Notes: generated from the sequence alone by a model not told the origin. DNA of 64,000 nucleotides from an uncultured candidatus Porisulfidus sp. (GCA_965204575.1 OZ241993.1:1440001-1504000), one strand, 5' to 3'. Counted from the stretch's first letter, positions 13,162 through 40,380 are shown. Translations and numbers: made by a program.

Positions 13162-13258
13162 AGATACGCAAACCATCCGGCTCGGCGTGCGGAGCCTATA
13201 CCAAGAATTAGGAGGCTCTTCGAGGTTTCGTGTGGAATCCGTGCTAGAGTAAATCATC

Positions 13259-14665
13259 ATGCACCGAGCCTCCCGCTATCGTCTGTATCCGAACCAGACG
13301 CAGGAGCGGCAGTTCGCGCAGTTGTGCGGGGCCGGGCGGTTCGTCCACAACGAGTTGCTGGCCGACCAGATTCGGGAATACAAGCGTTTCGAGGCCGGCG
13401 AGAGAGACAGGCCGGGGGTTTCGCAGTTTGATTTTGGCCCTCGGTTCACGCGGCTGAGGGCGAAGGAAGGCAACGAGTGGTTGCGGGAACTGTCGTTTCC
13501 CATTGTCCGCAGTTCGGGCGCATTTCCCCTAGCGTCTGCATTCGCGCATTTCTCCCGGCGGATTCGGGAAGGCAAGTGCGGCAAGCAGGCCGGGTTTCCC
13601 CGTTTCAAGGTCAAGGGCGTCAGCCGGGAGTCGTTCACGATCCCATGCGACGTAAAGGTGAAGAAAAAGCGGTTTTGGGTGCCGAAGGTGGGTTGGATCC
13701 GGATGAACCGTAAGGCGCAGTCGCGCACGCGCGGGGCCGACCCCTGGGACGGCGGCGAGGCCAAGGTCGCGGTGGTGTACCGGGAGCTGGACAAGTGGTA
13801 CATATCGGTGTTGTGGGAGGTGGAAGACCCGGACTGGCGCTGGCACGGCGGGGTCTGCGGCATCGATCGCAACTCGGAGAACCTAGCGGGCGCTTGGTGC
13901 GGAGGGCGGAAGCTCATCGAGATTCCGTACGAGCGGATCGGGAAGTACGAGGCGCGGGCCCGGCACTACCAGTGGCGGGCGAGCCACCGGGAGCGGACCG
14001 AACTGAAGGATGCCGACGGGGTGCCAGTGCGAACGAAGTCCGGCCGACCGATCAAGGTGCCCTCGAACCGGCGCCGGCGGCTGCAGTTGCGCGCGGCGAA
14101 GGCGAAGCGCAAGGCGGCGGAGATCCGCAAGGACTTCAGCCATCAGTCCTCGGCGGACCTGGCGCGGAACTTCCAGCACATCGTGCTGGAGGATCTGGAC
14201 GTGCAGGCGATGCGGCGCTCGGCGCGGGGGGCGAAGGAAAAGCCCGGGAAAAACGTCAAGGCGAAGTCCGCGCTGAACCGGAAGATGGCGCAGTCCTCCT
14301 GCATGGGAATGGTGGATCGTTTTCTGAAGTACAAGGCAACGGACCTGATTCGGGTGCCGGCGCGGAACACCAGCCGGGCGTGCGCGGAATGCGGACACGT
14401 GGAGGCGGACAACCGAAAGGAGCAGGCGCACTTCAAGTGCCAGGCCTGCGGACACACGGACCATGCGGACATCAATGCCGCACGAAACATCCTGGACCTG
14501 GGATTGAACAGGCTCCTGACCGGAGGCGCTCCGGTGACGGGACGGGGAGGGGACAACGAAGCGGAGGCATTCTTCTATGAATGCCTAGTGGAGACCGCCG
14601 ATGATCCGTCAACGATGCAGTGGAACTACCGGGGCTCGCCCCCCGACTTCCACACAAAATCGTGA
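13259..14665 (+). CDS. tnpB: RNA-guided endonuclease TnpB family protein
   Basis: N-terminal YRLYPN..Q HTH, GFPRFK, RuvC-I GIDRN, RuvC-II VLEDL, zinc finger CAECG/CQACG, RuvC-III ADINAARNI. Confidence 0.95.
   Translation: MHRASRYRLYPNQTQERQFAQLCGAGRFVHNELLADQIREYKRFEAGERDRPGVSQFDFGPRFTRLRAKEGNEWLRELSFPIVRSSGAFPLASAFAHFSRRIREGKCGKQAGFPRFKVKGVSRESFTIPCDVKVKKKRFWVPKVGWIRMNRKAQSRTRGADPWDGGEAKVAVVYRELDKWYISVLWEVEDPDWRWHGGVCGIDRNSENLAGAWCGGRKLIEIPYERIGKYEARARHYQWRASHRERTELKDADGVPVRTKSGRPIKVPSNRRRRLQLRAAKAKRKAAEIRKDFSHQSSADLARNFQHIVLEDLDVQAMRRSARGAKEKPGKNVKAKSALNRKMAQSSCMGMVDRFLKYKATDLIRVPARNTSRACAECGHVEADNRKEQAHFKCQACGHTDHADINAARNILDLGLNRLLTGGAPVTGRGGDNEAEAFFYECLVETADDPSTMQWNYRGSPPDFHTKS
14516..14632 (+). 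ncRNA. Putative omegaRNA (scaffold 14516-14612 plus guide) overlapping the tnpB 3' end
   Basis: 97-nt block shared with 29571-29667 and 39682-39778; hairpins ACCGGAG/CTCCGGT and AGGCATTC/GAATGCCT; ends in TCAA; true 5' and 3' ends not determinable. Confidence 0.7.
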
Positions 14666-14787
14666 AGCGCCAATTAGGTATAATGCGTCGGCACCCAATT
14701 GGCTATAATGCGCCATCGAGATTTTAGGGATATTCGCGGGGAGCAGATGAGCAAAATATCCGTCTCAAACTTTCGACAAGGCTGGAA

Positions 14788-27876: not shown

Positions 27877-28234
27877 TGGTGGAGGTGGCGGGAATCGAAC
27901 CCGCGTCCGGCAGTTCCTCCTCTTCGGCCCTACATGCTTAGCACCGTCTTTTGTCTCGCGATCAACACCCGACGGACAGGGCCCGATGATCACCAGCCTG
28001 CATGTTGACTTTAACCTTTCGGCTCCAGACAGACCGAACGGCGATCTTGTGTAGTCGACATCCATATCGGGGTCCACAAGCATCTCCCGAAAGGATGACT
28101 AGCCGGGATTAAGCGGCTAGTGCGTAGTTGTCGTCGTTGGCAACTAATTTTTTCGCAACCGTTTTTTACGAGGTCGTTGCCGCCTCGGCATGCGCCTTGG
28201 ATTTAGTAACCGCCGTCGAAGCCAGGTCACCCCC
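27877..28234 (-). ncRNA. ssrA: tmRNA
   Basis: 5' GGGGGTG pairs with 3' CACCTCC-ACCA (G3-U); T-arm GGTTCGATTCC; tag reading frame ANDDNYALAA* at 28141-28109. Confidence 0.96.
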
Positions 28235-28313
28235 AAGTCATCTGGAACCATTATACGAGATAATAGGGGGGCTTCGAGGTTTTGTGTGGAAAGTCGTGAT
28301 AGAGTACACGATC

Positions 28314-29720
28314 ATGCACCGAGCCTCCCGCTACCGTCTGTATCCGAACCAGGCGCAGGAGCGGCAGTTCACGCGGCTGTGCGGAGCCGGGCGGTTCGTC
28401 TACAACGAACTGCTGGCCAACCAGATCCGGGAATACAAGCGTTTCGAGGCCGGCGAGAGGGAAAGACCGGGGGTTTCGCAGTTTGATTTTGGCCCTCGGT
28501 TCACGCGGCTGAGAACGAAGGAAGGCCACGAGTGGTTGCGGGAACTGTCGTTTCCCATTGCCCGCAGTTCGGGCGCGTTTCCCCTAGCATCTGCGTTCGC
28601 GCATTTCTCCCGGCGGATTCGGGAAGGCAAGTGCGGCAAACAGGCCGGATTCCCCCGTTTTAAGGTCAAGGGCGTCAGCCGGGAGTCATTTACGATCCCG
28701 TACAACGTGAAGGTGAAGAAAAAGCGGCTTTGGGTGCCGAAGGTCGGCTGGATTCGGATGAACCGCAAGGCGCAATCGCGCACGCGGGGGGCGGACCCCT
28801 GGGACGGCGGCGAGGCCAAGGTTGCGGTGGTGTACCGGGAACTGGACAAGTGGTACGTGTCGGTGCTGTGGGAGGTGGAAGATCCGGACTGGCGCTGGCA
28901 CGGTGGGGTCTGCGGGATTGACCGCAACTCGGAGAACATCGCGGGAGCCTGGAGCGGCGGGCGGAGGCTGATCGAGATTCCGTACAAGCGGATCGGGAAG
29001 TACGAGGCGCGGGCGCGGCACTACCAGTGGCGGGCGAGCCGCCGGGAACGAATCGAACTGAAGGACTCTGACGGGGAGCCGGTGCGCACGAAGTCTGGGC
29101 GGGTGGTCAAGATAGCCTCGAACCGGCGCCGACGGTTGCAGTTGCGCGCGGCGAAGGCGAAGCGCAAGGCGGCGGAAATCCGCAGGGACTTCAGCCATCA
29201 GGCCTCGGCGGACCTGGCTCGGAACTTCCAGCACATCGTGCTGGAGGACCTGGACGTGCAGGCGATGCGGCGCTCGGCGCGGGGGACGAGGGAGAAGCCC
29301 GGAAAAAACGTCAAGGCGAAGTCCGCGCTGAACCGGAAGATGGCGCAGTCCTCCTGCATGGGGATGGTGGACCGTTTCCTTCAGTACAAGGCAGCGGACC
29401 TGATCCGGGTGCCGGCGCGGAACACCAGCCGGGCGTGCGCGGAATGCGGGCACGTGGAGGCGGACAACCGGAAGGAGCAGGCGCACTTCAAGTGCCAAGC
29501 CTGCGGACACACGGACAATGCGGACATCAACGCCACACGAAACATCCTGGACCTGGGATTGAACAGGCTCCTGGCCGGAGGCGCTCCGGTGACGGGACGG
29601 GGAGGGGACAACGAAGCGGGGGCATTCTTCTATGAGTGTCTAGTGGACACCGCCGATGATCCGTCAACGATGCAGTGGAACTACCGGGGCTCGCCCCCTG
29701 ATTTCCACACAAATTCGTGA
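28314..29720 (+). CDS. tnpB: RNA-guided endonuclease TnpB family protein (copy 2)
   Basis: Same motifs as copy 1; about 37 aa differences over 468 by manual count; start at MHRASRY. Confidence 0.95.
   Translation: MHRASRYRLYPNQAQERQFTRLCGAGRFVYNELLANQIREYKRFEAGERERPGVSQFDFGPRFTRLRTKEGHEWLRELSFPIARSSGAFPLASAFAHFSRRIREGKCGKQAGFPRFKVKGVSRESFTIPYNVKVKKKRLWVPKVGWIRMNRKAQSRTRGADPWDGGEAKVAVVYRELDKWYVSVLWEVEDPDWRWHGGVCGIDRNSENIAGAWSGGRRLIEIPYKRIGKYEARARHYQWRASRRERIELKDSDGEPVRTKSGRVVKIASNRRRRLQLRAAKAKRKAAEIRRDFSHQASADLARNFQHIVLEDLDVQAMRRSARGTREKPGKNVKAKSALNRKMAQSSCMGMVDRFLQYKAADLIRVPARNTSRACAECGHVEADNRKEQAHFKCQACGHTDNADINATRNILDLGLNRLLAGGAPVTGRGGDNEAGAFFYECLVDTADDPSTMQWNYRGSPPDFHTNS
29571..29687 (+). 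ncRNA. Putative omegaRNA (scaffold 29571-29667 plus guide), copy 2
   Basis: Homologous to 14516-14612; stem changes become G-U pairs; ends TCAA followed by the same guide. Confidence 0.7.
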
Positions 29721-29786
29721 AGCGCCATAATAGGCATGGAGTTCGCCTGCCTATCCGTACGAACCGATCCTCCGGCCGTCATTTTC

Positions 29787-32700
29787 ATGCCTGTATGCTC
29801 TTACCCCGGCGGCAAGGCGCTGACCGATCATTCCCGGCACAGGCTCAATGTCCGCCTCCAGGCACATGGCCACGGGCAGGTTTCCAGTGCACGTTTCCTG
29901 CATTTTGTGGACTGTGAGCGGGCTCTCGACCCAACTGAGGAGGGAATCCTCGCAGGGCTCCTGGACTACGCGCCGGCCGTAGACGAGCCGACCTCAGGTC
30001 CCTCAGTCCTTGTTGTCCCGCGGCTTGGCACGATCTCGCCATGGTCTAGTAAGGCCACTGAAATTGTCCGGAATTGCGGACTGACCGCTGTTCTAAGAGT
30101 GGAGAGAGGGGTGGAATACCGCCTGCAAGGCGTGGATCATGCCTCACCGGAACAAGTTGCCTTGCTGCATGATCGGATGACCGAATCGATCTTGGCTCAC
30201 CGAGAACAGTGCGAGAAGCTTTTTGAGCATCCGGAGCCAGCCCCGCTTGAGCGGATCTCCCTAGGCTCTCAGCCCGCCGAAGCACTGCACGAGGCCAACC
30301 AAGCCTATGGTCTGGCCCTTTCCGAGGCAGATATCGAATATCTGACCCAGGCTTATAACCAGCTTGGGCGGGATCCCACGGATGCCGAATTGATGATGTT
30401 CGCCCAAGTTAATTCTGAACATTGCCGACACAAGATTTTCAATGCACGCTGGACGATTGATGGGAAACCGATGCCGAAGAGCCTGTTCGAAATGATCCAG
30501 CATACGCATGCCGTGTCGCCGGACGGGACTCTGTCGGCCTACCGCGACAATGCCGCAGTACTTGACCTAGGCCGTAGCCGCCGTTCTGCAGTTGATCCGA
30601 AGACTCGCGCATGGGAGGCCATCGACGATGACTACGGAATGGTCATCAAAGTGGAGACGCACAACCACCCGACGGGCATTTCTCCATTCCCAGGTGCTGC
30701 GACGGGCAGCGGGGGAGAGATTCGCGATGAAACCGCCTGCGGCCGGGGAGGGCGCCCGAAGGCGGGCCTATGCGGGTTCACGGTATCGAACCTCAATCTC
30801 GACACATGGCCGCGGCCTTGGGAGGATTTGTCCCGGGAGCATCCGCCCCGCATGGCCCAACCGCTGGACATCATGATCGAAGGCCCAATCGGAGCAGCCT
30901 CCTTCAACAACGAGTTTGGCCGGCCATGCTTGGCTGGGTACTTTCGTACCTTGGAAGGTGAAGCACCTGCACCTGCGGGGCGCAAGGTATTCGGCTACCA
31001 CAAACCAATCATGATCGCGGGAGGCGTTGGCAGCATCCGCAAGGATCATGTGCAGAAACAGCCGATTCCCGAAGGGGCTTTGATCGTGGTTCTGGGAGGT
31101 CCGGCGATGTTGATTGGTTTGGGGGGTGGGGCCGCATCATCGCAGCATACGGGAGCAGGAGACGAAGAACTGGATTACGCTTCGGTACAGCGCAGCAATC
31201 CTGAAATGCAGCGTCGCGCCCAAGAAGTCATTGAGCAGTGCACGGCATGGGGAACAGACAATCCGATTCTGGCTTTGCACGATGTGGGTGCAGGCGGGCT
31301 CTCCAATGCCATTCCGGAACTGATTGACGGAGAACTGGGTGGCGCAGAGTTGGATTTGCGCGAGATCCCATGTGCAGACAGCGGGATGTCGCCACGGGAA
31401 ATTTGGTGCAATGAGTCGCAGGAGCGCTATGTGCTCACGATCCGGGCCGAAGCGATCGAGAACTTTTCCGAACTGTGCCGTAGGGAACGATGCCCATTCT
31501 CGATAGTTGGCCAAGCTGCTGCTGACGGCCAATTGCGCTTGAAAGACCCGCATTTCGGAGAAACTGCAGCAGACGTGCCCTTGACGCTCTTGTTCGGGGA
31601 ATCCTCCAAGATGGATATAGCCGTGCCTTCGGTGGATTGCCCGGATGTGCCGCTGGACCTGAAGGACATTGAGCTCTCGGAGGCGATAGAGCGTGTACTG
31701 ACATTGCCTTGCGTGGGCTCCAAGTCTTTCCTGATTACGATTGGAGATCGCTCGGTAGGAGGCTTGACGGTTCGGGATCAGATGGTCGGGCCCTGGCAGG
31801 TTCCGGTTGCGGATGCGGCAGTGACGGCCTGTGATTTCGAGGGAGTCAAGGGAGAAGCCATGGCAATGGGGGAGAGGCCGACCTTGGCCGTCCATCGCCC
31901 AGCGGCTTCCGCGCGCATGGCGGTGGCAGAAGCCCTCACTAATCTAGCCAGCGTGAAGGTGCTAGACCGAGCCCGGATCCGCCTGTCTGCGAATTGGATG
32001 GCTGCGGGTTCCGAAGCAGAAGCACTTTACGGACTGTATGAAGCGGTCGAGGCGGTTGGCATGGACCTGTGCCCCAAACTCGGCATCGCAATCCCGGTCG
32101 GCAAGGATTCCTTGTCCATGCAGGCAACTTGGGAAGGCAAGCAAGTGACTTCTCCGGTCTCGCTGGTTGTTTCGGCGTTTGCCTCAGTGGAGGACGTACG
32201 CCGACATGCCACGCCGCAATTGCAAGATATGGCCGATTCGTGCTTGTTGCTGGTGTCCTTGAGCTCTAAACGACGTCTCGGAGGCTCGGCATTGGCACAA
32301 GTGTACGGTCAGACCGGCTCGGAGACTCCGGACGTCGACAATCCATCGCTTCTGGCTGCTTTTTTCGATCAGATACAGGCGTTGCTGGACGAAGATGCGA
32401 TTCTGGCCTACCACGATCGCTCAGACGGGGGGCTGCTGGCTTGCCTTTGTGAATGCGCCTTTGCTGGCCGCATGGGATTGGAAATAGATTTTCCAGTCGA
32501 AACGGGCGAAGTGTTGGATTACCTGTTTAACGAGGAGATTGGCGCAGTATTGCAGGTTCGGGGCGCACAAATGCAAGAAATCATGGACCGACTCAGGGAA
32601 GCCGGGCTCACTTGCGGGCCGATCGGAGCCCCGGATACCGAGCCAATGCTTCGATTGCGATGCCAGGGTGAGGAAATCGGGACTTGGGCATTACCCGAAC

Positions 32701-33638
32701 TTGAGCAATTGTGGGGCCGGACCAGTTACGAAATCGCCCGGCGCCGGGATCATGAGGAATGTGCTCGCAACGAGCACGAAAACAGGAAGAAATGGAGCAC
32801 ACCGCCGCTTTTCTCCAAATTGTCCTATGAAATAGGGGAAAACCCCGCTGCCCCCTATATCCAAGCCGGTACAGCGCCCATCATCGCGATTCTCAGAGAA
32901 CAGGGCGTCAACGGGCAATTCGAGATGGCAGCCGCGTTCTCCCGGGCCGGTTTCGTCTGCAGGGACCTGCACATGAACGATCTCCAGCAGAATCCGCACC
33001 TTCTGGATGATGTCTCGGGCTTGGCTGCCTGTGGCGGATTCTCGTACGGCGACGTTCTCGGAGCCGGTGGGGGTTGGGCAAAAAATGTCTTGTATCACAA
33101 AGATCTAAGGGAGATTTTCGAGAAATTTTTCAAGCGGCCGGAAGTTTTCGCGCTGGGTGTCTGCAATGGCTGCCAGTTGCTTTCCCAAATGAAAGATCTG
33201 ATCCCGGGTGCAGGGCATTGGCCGCGTTTCGTGCCGAATCTCAGCGAACAATTCGAAGCCAGACTGTGCGAAGTAGAGGTTCTGGAATCACCCTCTATCC
33301 TGCTTCAAGGCATGGCTGGTAGCCGCCTCCCGATCGTCGTCGCGCATGGGGAAGGGCGCATTGATCCACAATGCAACATGGCGGATTTGGAAGAAACAGC
33401 CTGCCTGCGATACATCAATGCCAACGGAAAGGCTACTGCGGAGGATTACCCGGCCAACCCGAATGGTTCGGAAGAGGGCATAACCGCGTTGACCAGCACG
33501 GACGGGCGTTTCACCATCATGATGCCGCATCCGGAACGTGTTTTTCGTACCCTGCAGCATTCTTGGCACCCCTCGGAGTGGGGAGAAGAGGCTCCCTGGC
33601 TGCGTCTTTTCCAGAATGCACGGGCCTGGGTGGCCTAA
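29787..33638 (+). CDS. purL: Phosphoribosylformylglycinamidine synthase (large type)
   Basis: NSEHCRHKIF, KVETHNHPT, HDVGAGG, GVCNGCQ, MMPHPER. Confidence 0.97.
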   Translation: MPVCSYPGGKALTDHSRHRLNVRLQAHGHGQVSSARFLHFVDCERALDPTEEGILAGLLDYAPAVDEPTSGPSVLVVPRLGTISPWSSKATEIVRNCGLTAVLRVERGVEYRLQGVDHASPEQVALLHDRMTESILAHREQCEKLFEHPEPAPLERISLGSQPAEALHEANQAYGLALSEADIEYLTQAYNQLGRDPTDAELMMFAQVNSEHCRHKIFNARWTIDGKPMPKSLFEMIQHTHAVSPDGTLSAYRDNAAVLDLGRSRRSAVDPKTRAWEAIDDDYGMVIKVETHNHPTGISPFPGAATGSGGEIRDETACGRGGRPKAGLCGFTVSNLNLDTWPRPWEDLSREHPPRMAQPLDIMIEGPIGAASFNNEFGRPCLAGYFRTLEGEAPAPAGRKVFGYHKPIMIAGGVGSIRKDHVQKQPIPEGALIVVLGGPAMLIGLGGGAASSQHTGAGDEELDYASVQRSNPEMQRRAQEVIEQCTAWGTDNPILALHDVGAGGLSNAIPELIDGELGGAELDLREIPCADSGMSPREIWCNESQERYVLTIRAEAIENFSELCRRERCPFSIVGQAAADGQLRLKDPHFGETAADVPLTLLFGESSKMDIAVPSVDCPDVPLDLKDIELSEAIERVLTLPCVGSKSFLITIGDRSVGGLTVRDQMVGPWQVPVADAAVTACDFEGVKGEAMAMGERPTLAVHRPAASARMAVAEALTNLASVKVLDRARIRLSANWMAAGSEAEALYGLYEAVEAVGMDLCPKLGIAIPVGKDSLSMQATWEGKQVTSPVSLVVSAFASVEDVRRHATPQLQDMADSCLLLVSLSSKRRLGGSALAQVYGQTGSETPDVDNPSLLAAFFDQIQALLDEDAILAYHDRSDGGLLACLCECAFAGRMGLEIDFPVETGEVLDYLFNEEIGAVLQVRGAQMQEIMDRLREAGLTCGPIGAPDTEPMLRLRCQGEEIGTWALPELEQLWGRTSYEIARRRDHEECARNEHENRKKWSTPPLFSKLSYEIGENPAAPYIQAGTAPIIAILREQGVNGQFEMAAAFSRAGFVCRDLHMNDLQQNPHLLDDVSGLAACGGFSYGDVLGAGGGWAKNVLYHKDLREIFEKFFKRPEVFALGVCNGCQLLSQMKDLIPGAGHWPRFVPNLSEQFEARLCEVEVLESPSILLQGMAGSRLPIVVAHGEGRIDPQCNMADLEETACLRYINANGKATAEDYPANPNGSEEGITALTSTDGRFTIMMPHPERVFRTLQHSWHPSEWGEEAPWLRLFQNARAWVA

Positions 33639-39563: not shown

Positions 39564-39681
39564 TTTGACGGATTCGTTGTATGCAAACCGGCGTAAGGTT
39601 CCATTAAATCAAAGAGCAAAGCCAACCGGGTTTTGACTATGATATGATTTGGGCGTCCGTGAGTGGGGGACGGTACTCATT

Positions 39682-39798
39682 CTGACCGGAGGCGCTCCGG
39701 TGACAGGACGGGGAGGGGACAACGAAACGGGGCCTTTTCGGGTGAGAAGGCTAGTGGATACCGCCGATGATCCGTCAATTATGCTCTGATACCGGAAA
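39682..39798 (+). ncRNA. Stand-alone omegaRNA-like locus (scaffold 39682-39778, distinct guide from 39779)
   Basis: 97-nt homology to both tnpB 3' ends with no tnpB gene attached; covarying hairpin; upstream TGnTATGAT; downstream GAAA-loop hairpin. Confidence 0.72.
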
Positions 39799-39855
39799 CG
39801 GTATTTATTGTGTACTAAGCGCCCAAACAAAAACAAAAACTGGAGTAAATCAATA

Positions 39856-40380
39856 ATGGCAATCGATAAAGTTCTCGTTGGAGAGGCTTTGGTCAACGAC
39901 AACGACCCTTCTGGGACAATGGCTGAAATCGCTCACATCGATCTTCTCATTGGCCCGCGCGGCTCTGCCGTGGAGACGGCTTTCTGCAACGGTCTGGTCA
40001 ACAACAAGGACGGGTTCACGACACTGCTCGCTGTAGTGGCGCCGAACCTGCCGTGTAAGCCGGACACCATGATGTACAACAAGGTCACGATCAAGGGCGC
40101 CAAACAGGCTGTCCAGATGTTCGGGCCCGCCCAGAAGGCTGTCGCCATGGCTGTTGCGGATTCAGTTGAGGCCGGGGTTCTCCCGAAAGACGAAAGCGGC
40201 AACCTGTATGTCTGTGTTGGCGTGTTCATCCACTGGGAGGCCGACAGCGATGCGGCGATCTACGAAAACAACTACAAGGCCACTAAGCAGGCTATCGCCA
40301 ATGCCGTGGGTGGAGTTCCCACTGTGGACGACATGCTTTCCCAGAAGGACAGCACCGACCATCCGTTCCAAGGCTTCTAG
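39856..40380 (+). CDS. fae: Formaldehyde-activating enzyme
   Basis: [40 protein letters not shown]; GGAG RBS. Confidence 0.95.

Follow-up and report, generated by a model that had tools for sequence, protein, structure and literature searches.

How does a solo tnpB gene that is bounded by terminal inverted repeats (TIRs) and a short target site duplication (TSD) move, and what part might its guide RNA play in such a setting? This question is raised by a locus in a stretch of 64,000 nucleotides from an uncultured candidatus Porisulfidus sp. (GCA_965204575.1 OZ241993.1:1440001-1504000), which is part of a single 1.82-Mb contig and to which we refer as the window. Two copies of a tnpB element lie in it. 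Copy 2, the subject of this study, occupies positions 28268..29726 (1459 bp, plus strand) between the tmRNA gene ssrA and purL. We consider it quite likely that this ISL3-type unit is a non-autonomous ISL3 element of the mobile-insertion-cassette type, in which the transposase gene has been replaced by tnpB and an omegaRNA scaffold.

Copy 2 entered the ssrA-purL spacer by an independent insertion

The ends of copy 2 are 25-nt inverted repeats, which were 80% complementary according to the repeat finder. The left TIR (GGGGCTTCGAGGTTTTGTGTGGAAA, 28268..28292, plus strand) was recovered by the repeat finder as well as by a TIR scan of the genome, and the right TIR (29702..29726, minus strand) reads GGCGCTTCACGAATTTGTGTGGAAA as its reverse complement. 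As the initial annotation had described, the 1459-bp unit is framed by a perfect 8-bp duplication: ATAATAGG is present at 28260..28267 (left TSD copy) and at 29727..29734 (right TSD copy), neither of which was assigned a strand. An agreement of 8/8 bases has a chance probability of ~1.5e-5 for one element, and 8-bp flank matches were seen again, with different 8-mers, at other copies of the family.

Copy 1 (13214..14671, plus strand, 1458 bp, tnpB at 13259-14665) is ~92% identical to copy 2 within the unit. The alignment begins and ends at the TIRs and the flanks could not be aligned, in agreement with the earlier statement that similarity is limited by the TIRs and that the flanks are unrelated; copy 1 is adjoined by a tadA-like deaminase and an AMP-binding ligase, copy 2 by ssrA and purL. 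The TSD of copy 1, AATTAGG[A/T], lies at 13206-13213 and 14672-14679 with a 7/8 match, and its length of 8 bp is a small correction to what had been annotated.

For an empty-site search, the flanks of each copy were compared with 15 other genomes of the genus and the junctions were aligned with those in the window. The site of copy 2 is empty in eight sister genomes. Four of them (G005, G012, G002, and G003) read ...CATTATACGAG ATAATAGG CATGGAGTTCGC..., where the 8-mer occurs just once between the flanks known from copy 2, and the other four (G007, G009, G008, and G001) carry one diverged 8-mer. The site of copy 1 is empty in six genomes, with one AATTAGGT in four and one AATTGGGT in two. Because these empty sites carry one 8-mer, the duplication of copy 1 is 8 bp long, the last base of its left TSD having changed since insertion. 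These comparisons show that copy 2 arrived at the ssrA-purL site by an insertion event of its own, which duplicated 8 bp. Both junctions of its insertion are also contained in unlabelled sequencing runs, in which no join that bypasses copy 2 was found.

The two copies are separated by 15 kb and group most closely with one another (sisters with a support of 100/100 in a maximum-likelihood tree of 22 elements), which would be in line with an origin by segmental duplication or gene conversion instead of transposition. Yet their similarity ends at the TIRs, their TSDs differ, and both sites are empty in sister genomes with a single 8-mer, so that this origin is already refuted and its probability negligible. 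The initial annotation, which had proposed independent transposition of the whole unit, had itself named two findings that would speak against it, namely the lack of a single 8-mer in the ssrA-purL and tadA-ligase regions of sister genomes and the descent of the copies from a larger segmental duplication. The single 8-mer was found (four exact and four diverged cases for copy 2, six genomes for copy 1), the flanks are unrelated, and since neither of the two findings came true, the interpretation is supported.

The ends resemble those of a resident ISL3 insertion sequence

Besides six tnpB elements, the TIR scan of the genome returned three further TIR pairs, each of which bounds a 1348-bp element with an ISL3 transposase (PF01610, 218 bits at three places). 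There are no differences among these three elements, each of which has a perfect 8-bp TSD (AAATGTTC, CCTAAAGT, and AATCTATT). Their transposase of 433 aa comprises Zn-ribbon, helix-turn-helix (HTH), and DDE_Tnp_ISL3 domains. Against NF033550 (cut-off 180), it reaches 283.5 bits. The left inverted repeat (IRL) of the resident ISL3 element, GGCGCATCACGGTTTTGTGTGGAAT, is identical to the right TIR of copy 1 at 22/25 positions and to that of copy 2 at 21/25, the latter strings being compared by eye. In both kinds of element, the open reading frame (ORF) runs into the TIR, with tnpB ending in ..PPDFHT.. and the transposase in ..PPFHT.. as the last residues. Taking TIR and 8-bp TSD of the resident ISL3 copies as the hallmarks of the family, we found both the likeness of the TIRs and the 8-bp TSD in copy 2, and no transposase of its own; its sole ORF is tnpB, and the ISL3 transposase is encoded elsewhere in the genome. 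Because its TIRs and 8-bp TSD match those of the resident ISL3 insertion sequence (IS), the unit can be regarded as an ISL3 shell without a transposase, and because its only ORF is tnpB, it is non-autonomous.

The protein encoded by copy 2 matches TnpB models of the IS200/IS605 type, as would be expected of an ordinary solo tnpB of the IS1341 group that is moved as single-stranded DNA by a Y1 TnpA transposase and whose inverted ends and repeats are incidental. In the part of a 2026 review that treats them, IS200/IS605 and IS607 elements are described as having neither TIRs nor a TSD (PMC13565253), whereas copy 2 has 25-nt TIRs and an 8-bp TSD confirmed by empty sites, and 8-bp TSDs occur at 5/6 copies of this genome and at 14/16 copies of its relatives. 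A PF01797 profile search of the genome for a Y1 transposase gave 0 matches, and the score of the protein against the IS200/IS605-type model NF038281 (147.8) is below the cut-off of 425. An IS200/IS605 origin is thus very improbable. Judged on its TIRs, its TSD, and a score of 103.8 against the IS607-type model NF038280 (cut-off 350), copy 2 is not an IS607 element either.

Most likely, the unit moves as a whole by means of a borrowed DDE transposase and not by IS200/IS605 chemistry. From the shared ends, we consider it likely that the ISL3 DDE transposase mobilises it in trans, in which case this enzyme would bind the TIRs common to both elements. The distribution of the two partners in the genus weighs against the simplest form of this proposal. 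ISL3 DNA was found in 10/16 genomes, often at contig ends. In the complete genome G001, 2 tnpB copies are present without an intact ISL3 transposase, and the likewise complete genome G009 has only a truncated ISL3 ORF of 324 aa beside four element copies. The latter (L065-L068) are near-identical, 1596 bp long, and separated by branch lengths of 0.004-0.018, and three of them have 7-8/8 matching TSD bases, which suggests a recent burst in G009 with a partner that has since decayed or was never resident. Such imperfect co-occurrence speaks against a simple one-to-one dependence and fits passengers that outlive their partner. No unit bearing tnpB plus a transposase was found among the copies of the relatives and in the collection scans.

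An intact tnpB gene and its family in the genus

The tnpB gene of copy 2 (28314..29720, plus strand, 468 aa) is intact; its stop codon lies within the right TIR and its 3' end 6 bp from the end of the element. The protein contains the Pfam domains PF12323 (HTH_OrfB_IS605), PF01385 (OrfB_IS605), and PF07282 (Cas12f1-like_TNB), belongs to the NCBIfam family guided_TnpB (NF040570, 183.7 bits, cut-off 100), and aligns with ISDra2 TnpB structures over residues 3-413 (E 1.7e-20). The RuvC residues D203, E311, and D404 and the cysteines C375, C378, C394, and C397 are invariant in an alignment of 8 sequences. The frame and the catalytic residues had been reported as kept, and indeed the 468-aa ORF is uninterrupted and retains the RuvC residues as well as both CxxC pairs; an earlier manual count of about 37 differing residues out of 468 between the two copies turned out to be exactly 37 in our protein comparison. 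That tnpB had stayed intact while the family diverged is likewise borne out. By the method of Nei and Gojobori, the ratio of nonsynonymous to synonymous substitution rates (dN/dS) was 0.15 between copy 1 and copy 2, at a dS of 0.246, and 0.15-0.27 across all 15 pairs of the six genomic copies. We therefore conclude from the value of 0.15 that tnpB is under purifying selection.

The six full-length copies of the genome are 80-100% identical to copy 2, and all of their frames (466-468 aa) are open. In 1.82 Mb this is a modest number, at odds with the high genomic copy number that had been suspected from two copies in the window. The flanking 8-mers agree at 8/8 positions in copy 2 and c3 and at 7/8 in copy 1, c5, and c6, with no match in c4. 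From seven related genomes of the genus we took 18 copies, both TIRs being found in 16; of their 8-mers, eight agree at 8/8, four at 7/8, and two at 6/8 positions, and two do not match. Left and right 8-mers were thus unmatched at c4 (G000:C1:1158419-1159877), and the same holds for L057, L136, and L139. There are also two loci from metagenomes where the left 8-mer belongs to one site and the right 8-mer to another, as would be expected from recombination between copies.

In scans of genome and metagenome collections, the family was found only in records of the genus (titled as Candidatus Porisulfidus, Chromatiales, or Gammaproteobacteria metagenome-assembled genomes), with one exception under Nitrospira. 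The contig in question from the Nitrospira bin (L114) carries an internally deleted element of 782 bp, the left flank and 8-mer of which are the same as at locus L113; judging from these sequences, both are probably the same DNA, binned differently. Remnants of the family in this genome comprise a 40-bp head-to-head fusion of two TIRs, a left end with the first 8 tnpB codons only, and a right-end fragment (G000:C1:624981-625020, 1295690-1295780, and 1563883-1563921). The genome has 16 TnpB-family ORFs in total. A second family of solo tnpB genes is present in six copies (G000:C1:65661-66767, 261567-262673, 443527-444639, 834339-835451, 1618327-1619438, and 435847-436958), which have other inverted repeats of ~24 nt (GGGAATTATGTATGAAAGTTGACA) and no obvious TSD.

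A predicted omegaRNA scaffold and miniatures without tnpB

The right end of copy 2 holds a predicted omegaRNA scaffold (29567..29726, plus strand), which overlaps the last ~50 tnpB codons and ends at the tip of the right TIR. The prediction was obtained with RNAalifold from 23 sequences, 18 full elements and 5 miniatures, and comprises 31 pairs, 11 of which have compensatory changes. In the alignment, 96.6% of the cells are paired on the predicted structure versus 37-48% with slid partners, and the observed covariation score was reached by 0/500 shuffles. This covariation supports a conserved RNA structure, which takes up the final ~160 nt of the element as far as the right TIR tip. Over the last ~53 codons of tnpB, dS is 0.03-0.22 versus 0.27-0.74 upstream.

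A stretch of 103 nt from the 3' part of tnpB recurs without tnpB at 39682-39784 and at two other places of the genome. In the window, it belongs to a tnpB-less miniature of ~245 bp (39580..39823, plus strand, left boundary approximate), which ends in TAAGCGCC and is 85% identical to copy 2 over these 103 nt. The miniature lies 32 bp upstream of the gene for the formaldehyde-activating enzyme, fae, which starts at 39856 and has the same orientation. Homologous miniatures were found in unrelated contexts in G012, G005, G002, and G007, with a 3' end (T/G)AAGCGCC like that of the right TIR of the full element, and two of them have 7-8/8 matching TSD bases and CTG in front.

The 3' tip AGCGCC could form base pairs with the apical GGCGCT of the first hairpin. 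Miniature L125 is changed on both sides (GGCACT and AGTGCC), and two elements show G.U changes only. A pseudoknot of the 3' tip with the first hairpin is suggestive only, with two points to be set against it: the compensatory event is a single one at CpG positions, and GGCGCT is also the plain sequence of the TIR tip. Prokaryotic omegaRNAs are described as forming a pseudoknot with their own 3' end in the respective part of the review (PMC13565253). Because of the predicted structure, the ends of the miniatures, the candidate pseudoknot, and this described property of omegaRNAs taken together, we infer that the TIR tip marks the end of the scaffold and that the guide lies in the flank. An alternative in which the scaffold ends at 29673 and is followed by a constant internal guide was dropped, as the miniatures share the homologous hairpin and the AAGCGCC end. 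The putative guide of the copy 2 omegaRNA (29727..29746, plus strand) would consist of the TSD and the first 12 nt of the flank and would cover the start codon of purL at 29736; the same 20 nt are present unchanged at the empty sites of G005, G012, G002, and G003.

A second kind of unit, ~290 bp long and with the same scaffold core, was observed at L131 and L132 (G000:C1:1028600-1029150 and 775750-776300). It combines a promoter-like TTGACA box with a hairpin that resembles a terminator. In these units, the scaffold is followed by ~18 nt that match the surroundings of the promoter box in the same unit, and in 4/5 units from 4 genomes both repeats share the same variant (TA or AT). Self-targeting, autoregulation, or gene conversion may account for these repeats.

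A one-sided motif before the left TSD

A G is found directly before the left TSD (position -1) at 29/30 independent insertion sites, and a T at position -2 at 19/30. In a first sample of elements, from which L068 was left out owing to an ambiguous left junction, G occupied position -1 in 20/21 cases and C position -3 in 12/21. The other nine sites, all of which have the G, are three genomic sites, three miniatures (read by eye), and three metagenomic left ends. There is no mirror motif on the side of the right TSD, where C was found at +1 in 5/21 elements. As a control, we inspected the flanks of autonomous ISL3 elements of this genome and its relatives, in which G occupies position -1 in 7/24 cases (Fisher's exact test against 29/30, p = 1.1e-7). 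The order in the empty allele is CTG, TSD, right flank, and the motif sits where the transposon-adjacent motif (TAM) of TnpB would be expected if the guide started with the right TSD. At copy 2, the triplet is GAG (28257..28259, plus strand), with the G at -1 in the candidate TAM position, and the same GAG precedes the 8-mer in the empty sites of the sister genomes.

Two other readings of the flank were rejected. A TSD of 9 bp, or a G that belongs to the element, does not agree with the presence of the G in empty sites and its absence from the right junction. As part of a tnpB promoter, the motif would be too distant, since the -10-like TAGAGT is ~42 nt from the flank.

Several observations count against a function of the motif as a TAM and of the scaffold in a working guide RNA. 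Among the autonomous ISL3 elements, G at -1 was found in 7/17 cases on the corresponding side, i.e. next to the right inverted repeat (IRR), versus 0/7 on the other side, and part of the G bias may therefore come from the transposase. Copies 2 and 1 have GAG and AAG before their TSDs, respectively, and not CTG, so that the motif is reduced to its G at both copies of the window. Among the 30 sites, three (L144 twice, and L148) are known from the left end only, and one, miniature G005a, has a TSD of 5/8 matching bases. The RNA contigs found in the metatranscriptome cover only the tmRNA part, 27877-28225.

The ISL3 trend in the same direction, although weak, the reduced motif of the two copies, and the coverage of the RNA contigs would all be in line with an explanation in which the same ISL3 shell is moved in trans, tnpB and its RNA ride along as cargo that is passive or serves some other end, and G or CTG stems from an asymmetry in how the transposase selects its targets; the G at -1 would then act as the leaving nucleotide in the attack of the right end on the target strand. 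Even against the corresponding ISL3 side, however, the excess of G is pronounced (29/30 vs 7/17, Fisher's exact test, p = 3.4e-5), and TG is found at 19/30 sites compared to 2/17 controls. Moreover, the motif comprises three bases, is one-sided, and lies on the expected side for a TAM, and both the purifying selection in all 15 tnpB pairs and the kept RNA structure are unexpected for dead cargo. We thus regard passive cargo as unlikely, although the weak trend in the ISL3 controls keeps it in contention, and a role of the motif in TnpB function as somewhat more probable.

Genomic surroundings of copy 2

The tmRNA gene ssrA (27877..28234, minus strand) has its 5' end 25 bp from the left TSD, which places copy 2 in its upstream region. 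On the other side, purL (FGAR amidotransferase, 29736..33638, plus strand) is co-oriented with tnpB, and its ATG follows the right TSD by 2 nt, so that purL has to be transcribed either across copy 2 or from within it. The spacer between the divergent genes ssrA and purL that hosts the element amounts to ~35 bp (28235-28267 and 29727-29738), and the sequence formerly upstream of the TATAAT box of ssrA has been replaced by copy 2. Copies 1 and 2 are each co-oriented with their own downstream gene.

Relation to known TnpB systems

Elements with the TIRs and the TSD of an IS family around non-transposase content, which are moved in trans, are familiar as mobile insertion cassettes, transporter IS, and miniature inverted-repeat transposable elements (MITEs). 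Copy 2 differs from mobile insertion cassettes and MITEs in that its passenger is a transposon-derived nuclease with a predicted guide RNA, and in that a second tier of scaffold-only miniatures exists.

Solo TnpBs in TIR transposons of the DDE type that are moved in trans have been known as a kind since 2023. In the relevant part of their study, Altae-Tran et al. 2023 (PNAS) distinguished six branches of DDE-associated TnpBs (DDE-1 to DDE-6), in all of which the transposon has inverted terminal repeats and the 3' end of tnpB lies within 250 bp of its end; solo TnpBs with the ends of transposase-bearing elements were taken as mobilised in trans (PMC10691335). The partner families named there and in the 2026 review, as far as the corresponding sections go, are IS630 (PMC10691335) and ISL2, IS630, and IS1031 (PMC13565253); these sections make no mention of ISL3. 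Copy 2 resembles the DDE-associated TnpBs as presented in that part of the study in that tnpB lies inside a TIR transposon, close to its 3' end, and in that solo copies share their ends with other elements; in contrast, the partner here is ISL3, as a separate element of the same genome, and ISL3 may be among the six branches (PMC10691335). By title or abstract, a full-text literature search yielded no report on a pairing of TnpB with ISL3. What is new here is the ISL3 partner in the same genome, the guide-only miniatures, and the one-sided motif beside a variable TSD.

Elements of the IS1341 group likewise have tnpB as their only ORF, and their scaffold lies over the 3' end of the gene and ends at the right end of the element, as predicted for copy 2. 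Unlike copy 2 with its ISL3-type TIRs and 8-bp TSDs, they are characterised in the section of the review on this group by subterminal hairpins, the absence of TIRs and TSD, and dependence on a Y1 TnpA (PMC13565253). The eukaryotic TnpB relative Fanzor is comparable as an RNA-guided nuclease in TSD-making DDE transposons, in which, according to the passage of the review concerned with it, the TAM includes the 5' TSD, and the scaffold contains the 3' TSD (PMC13565253). Unlike in Fanzor, the TSD is a variable 8-mer here and the motif lies outside of it, and the TSD would form the first 8 nt of the guide.

Proposed mechanism and implications

Together with the mobilisation in trans by the ISL3 transposase outlined above, TnpB may act as it does in IS605 elements, adapted to a TSD-making transposon. 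The omegaRNA would extend to the TIR tip and take its guide from the right TSD and the flank, and (C)TG just 5' of the left TSD would serve as the TAM. This could enable the nuclease to cut alleles that lack the insertion, and copies inserted where no TAM is present would be lost. Based on the comparative data presented here, we give this scheme as a whole, i.e. flank guide, (C)TG TAM, and cutting of empty alleles, a chance that is close to even. A more far-reaching version, which we advance only tentatively and with some doubt, is that an ISL3 lineage has fully integrated TnpB: the scaffold would owe its pseudoknot-forming 3' end to the tip of the right TIR, the variable TSD would be the seed of the guide, and the CTG TAM would sort the insertions that persist. 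The result might be an RNA-guided drive, with guide-only miniatures that parasitise both transposase and nuclease in trans.

What TnpB does for transposons that excise by a double-strand break and make TSDs is thus far a matter of conjecture; the portion of the review devoted to its association with DDE transposases describes this as rare in prokaryotes and offers only conjecture (PMC13565253). For annotation, our results imply that a solo tnpB should not be classed as IS200/IS605 by default. The genus provides a clean natural system in this regard, in which passenger, partner, and guide-only miniatures are present in small, partly complete genomes and dozens of independent insertions with matching empty sites are available. 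The one-sided motif gives a testable prediction for it, namely a (C)TG TAM and a guide that would start with the TSD.

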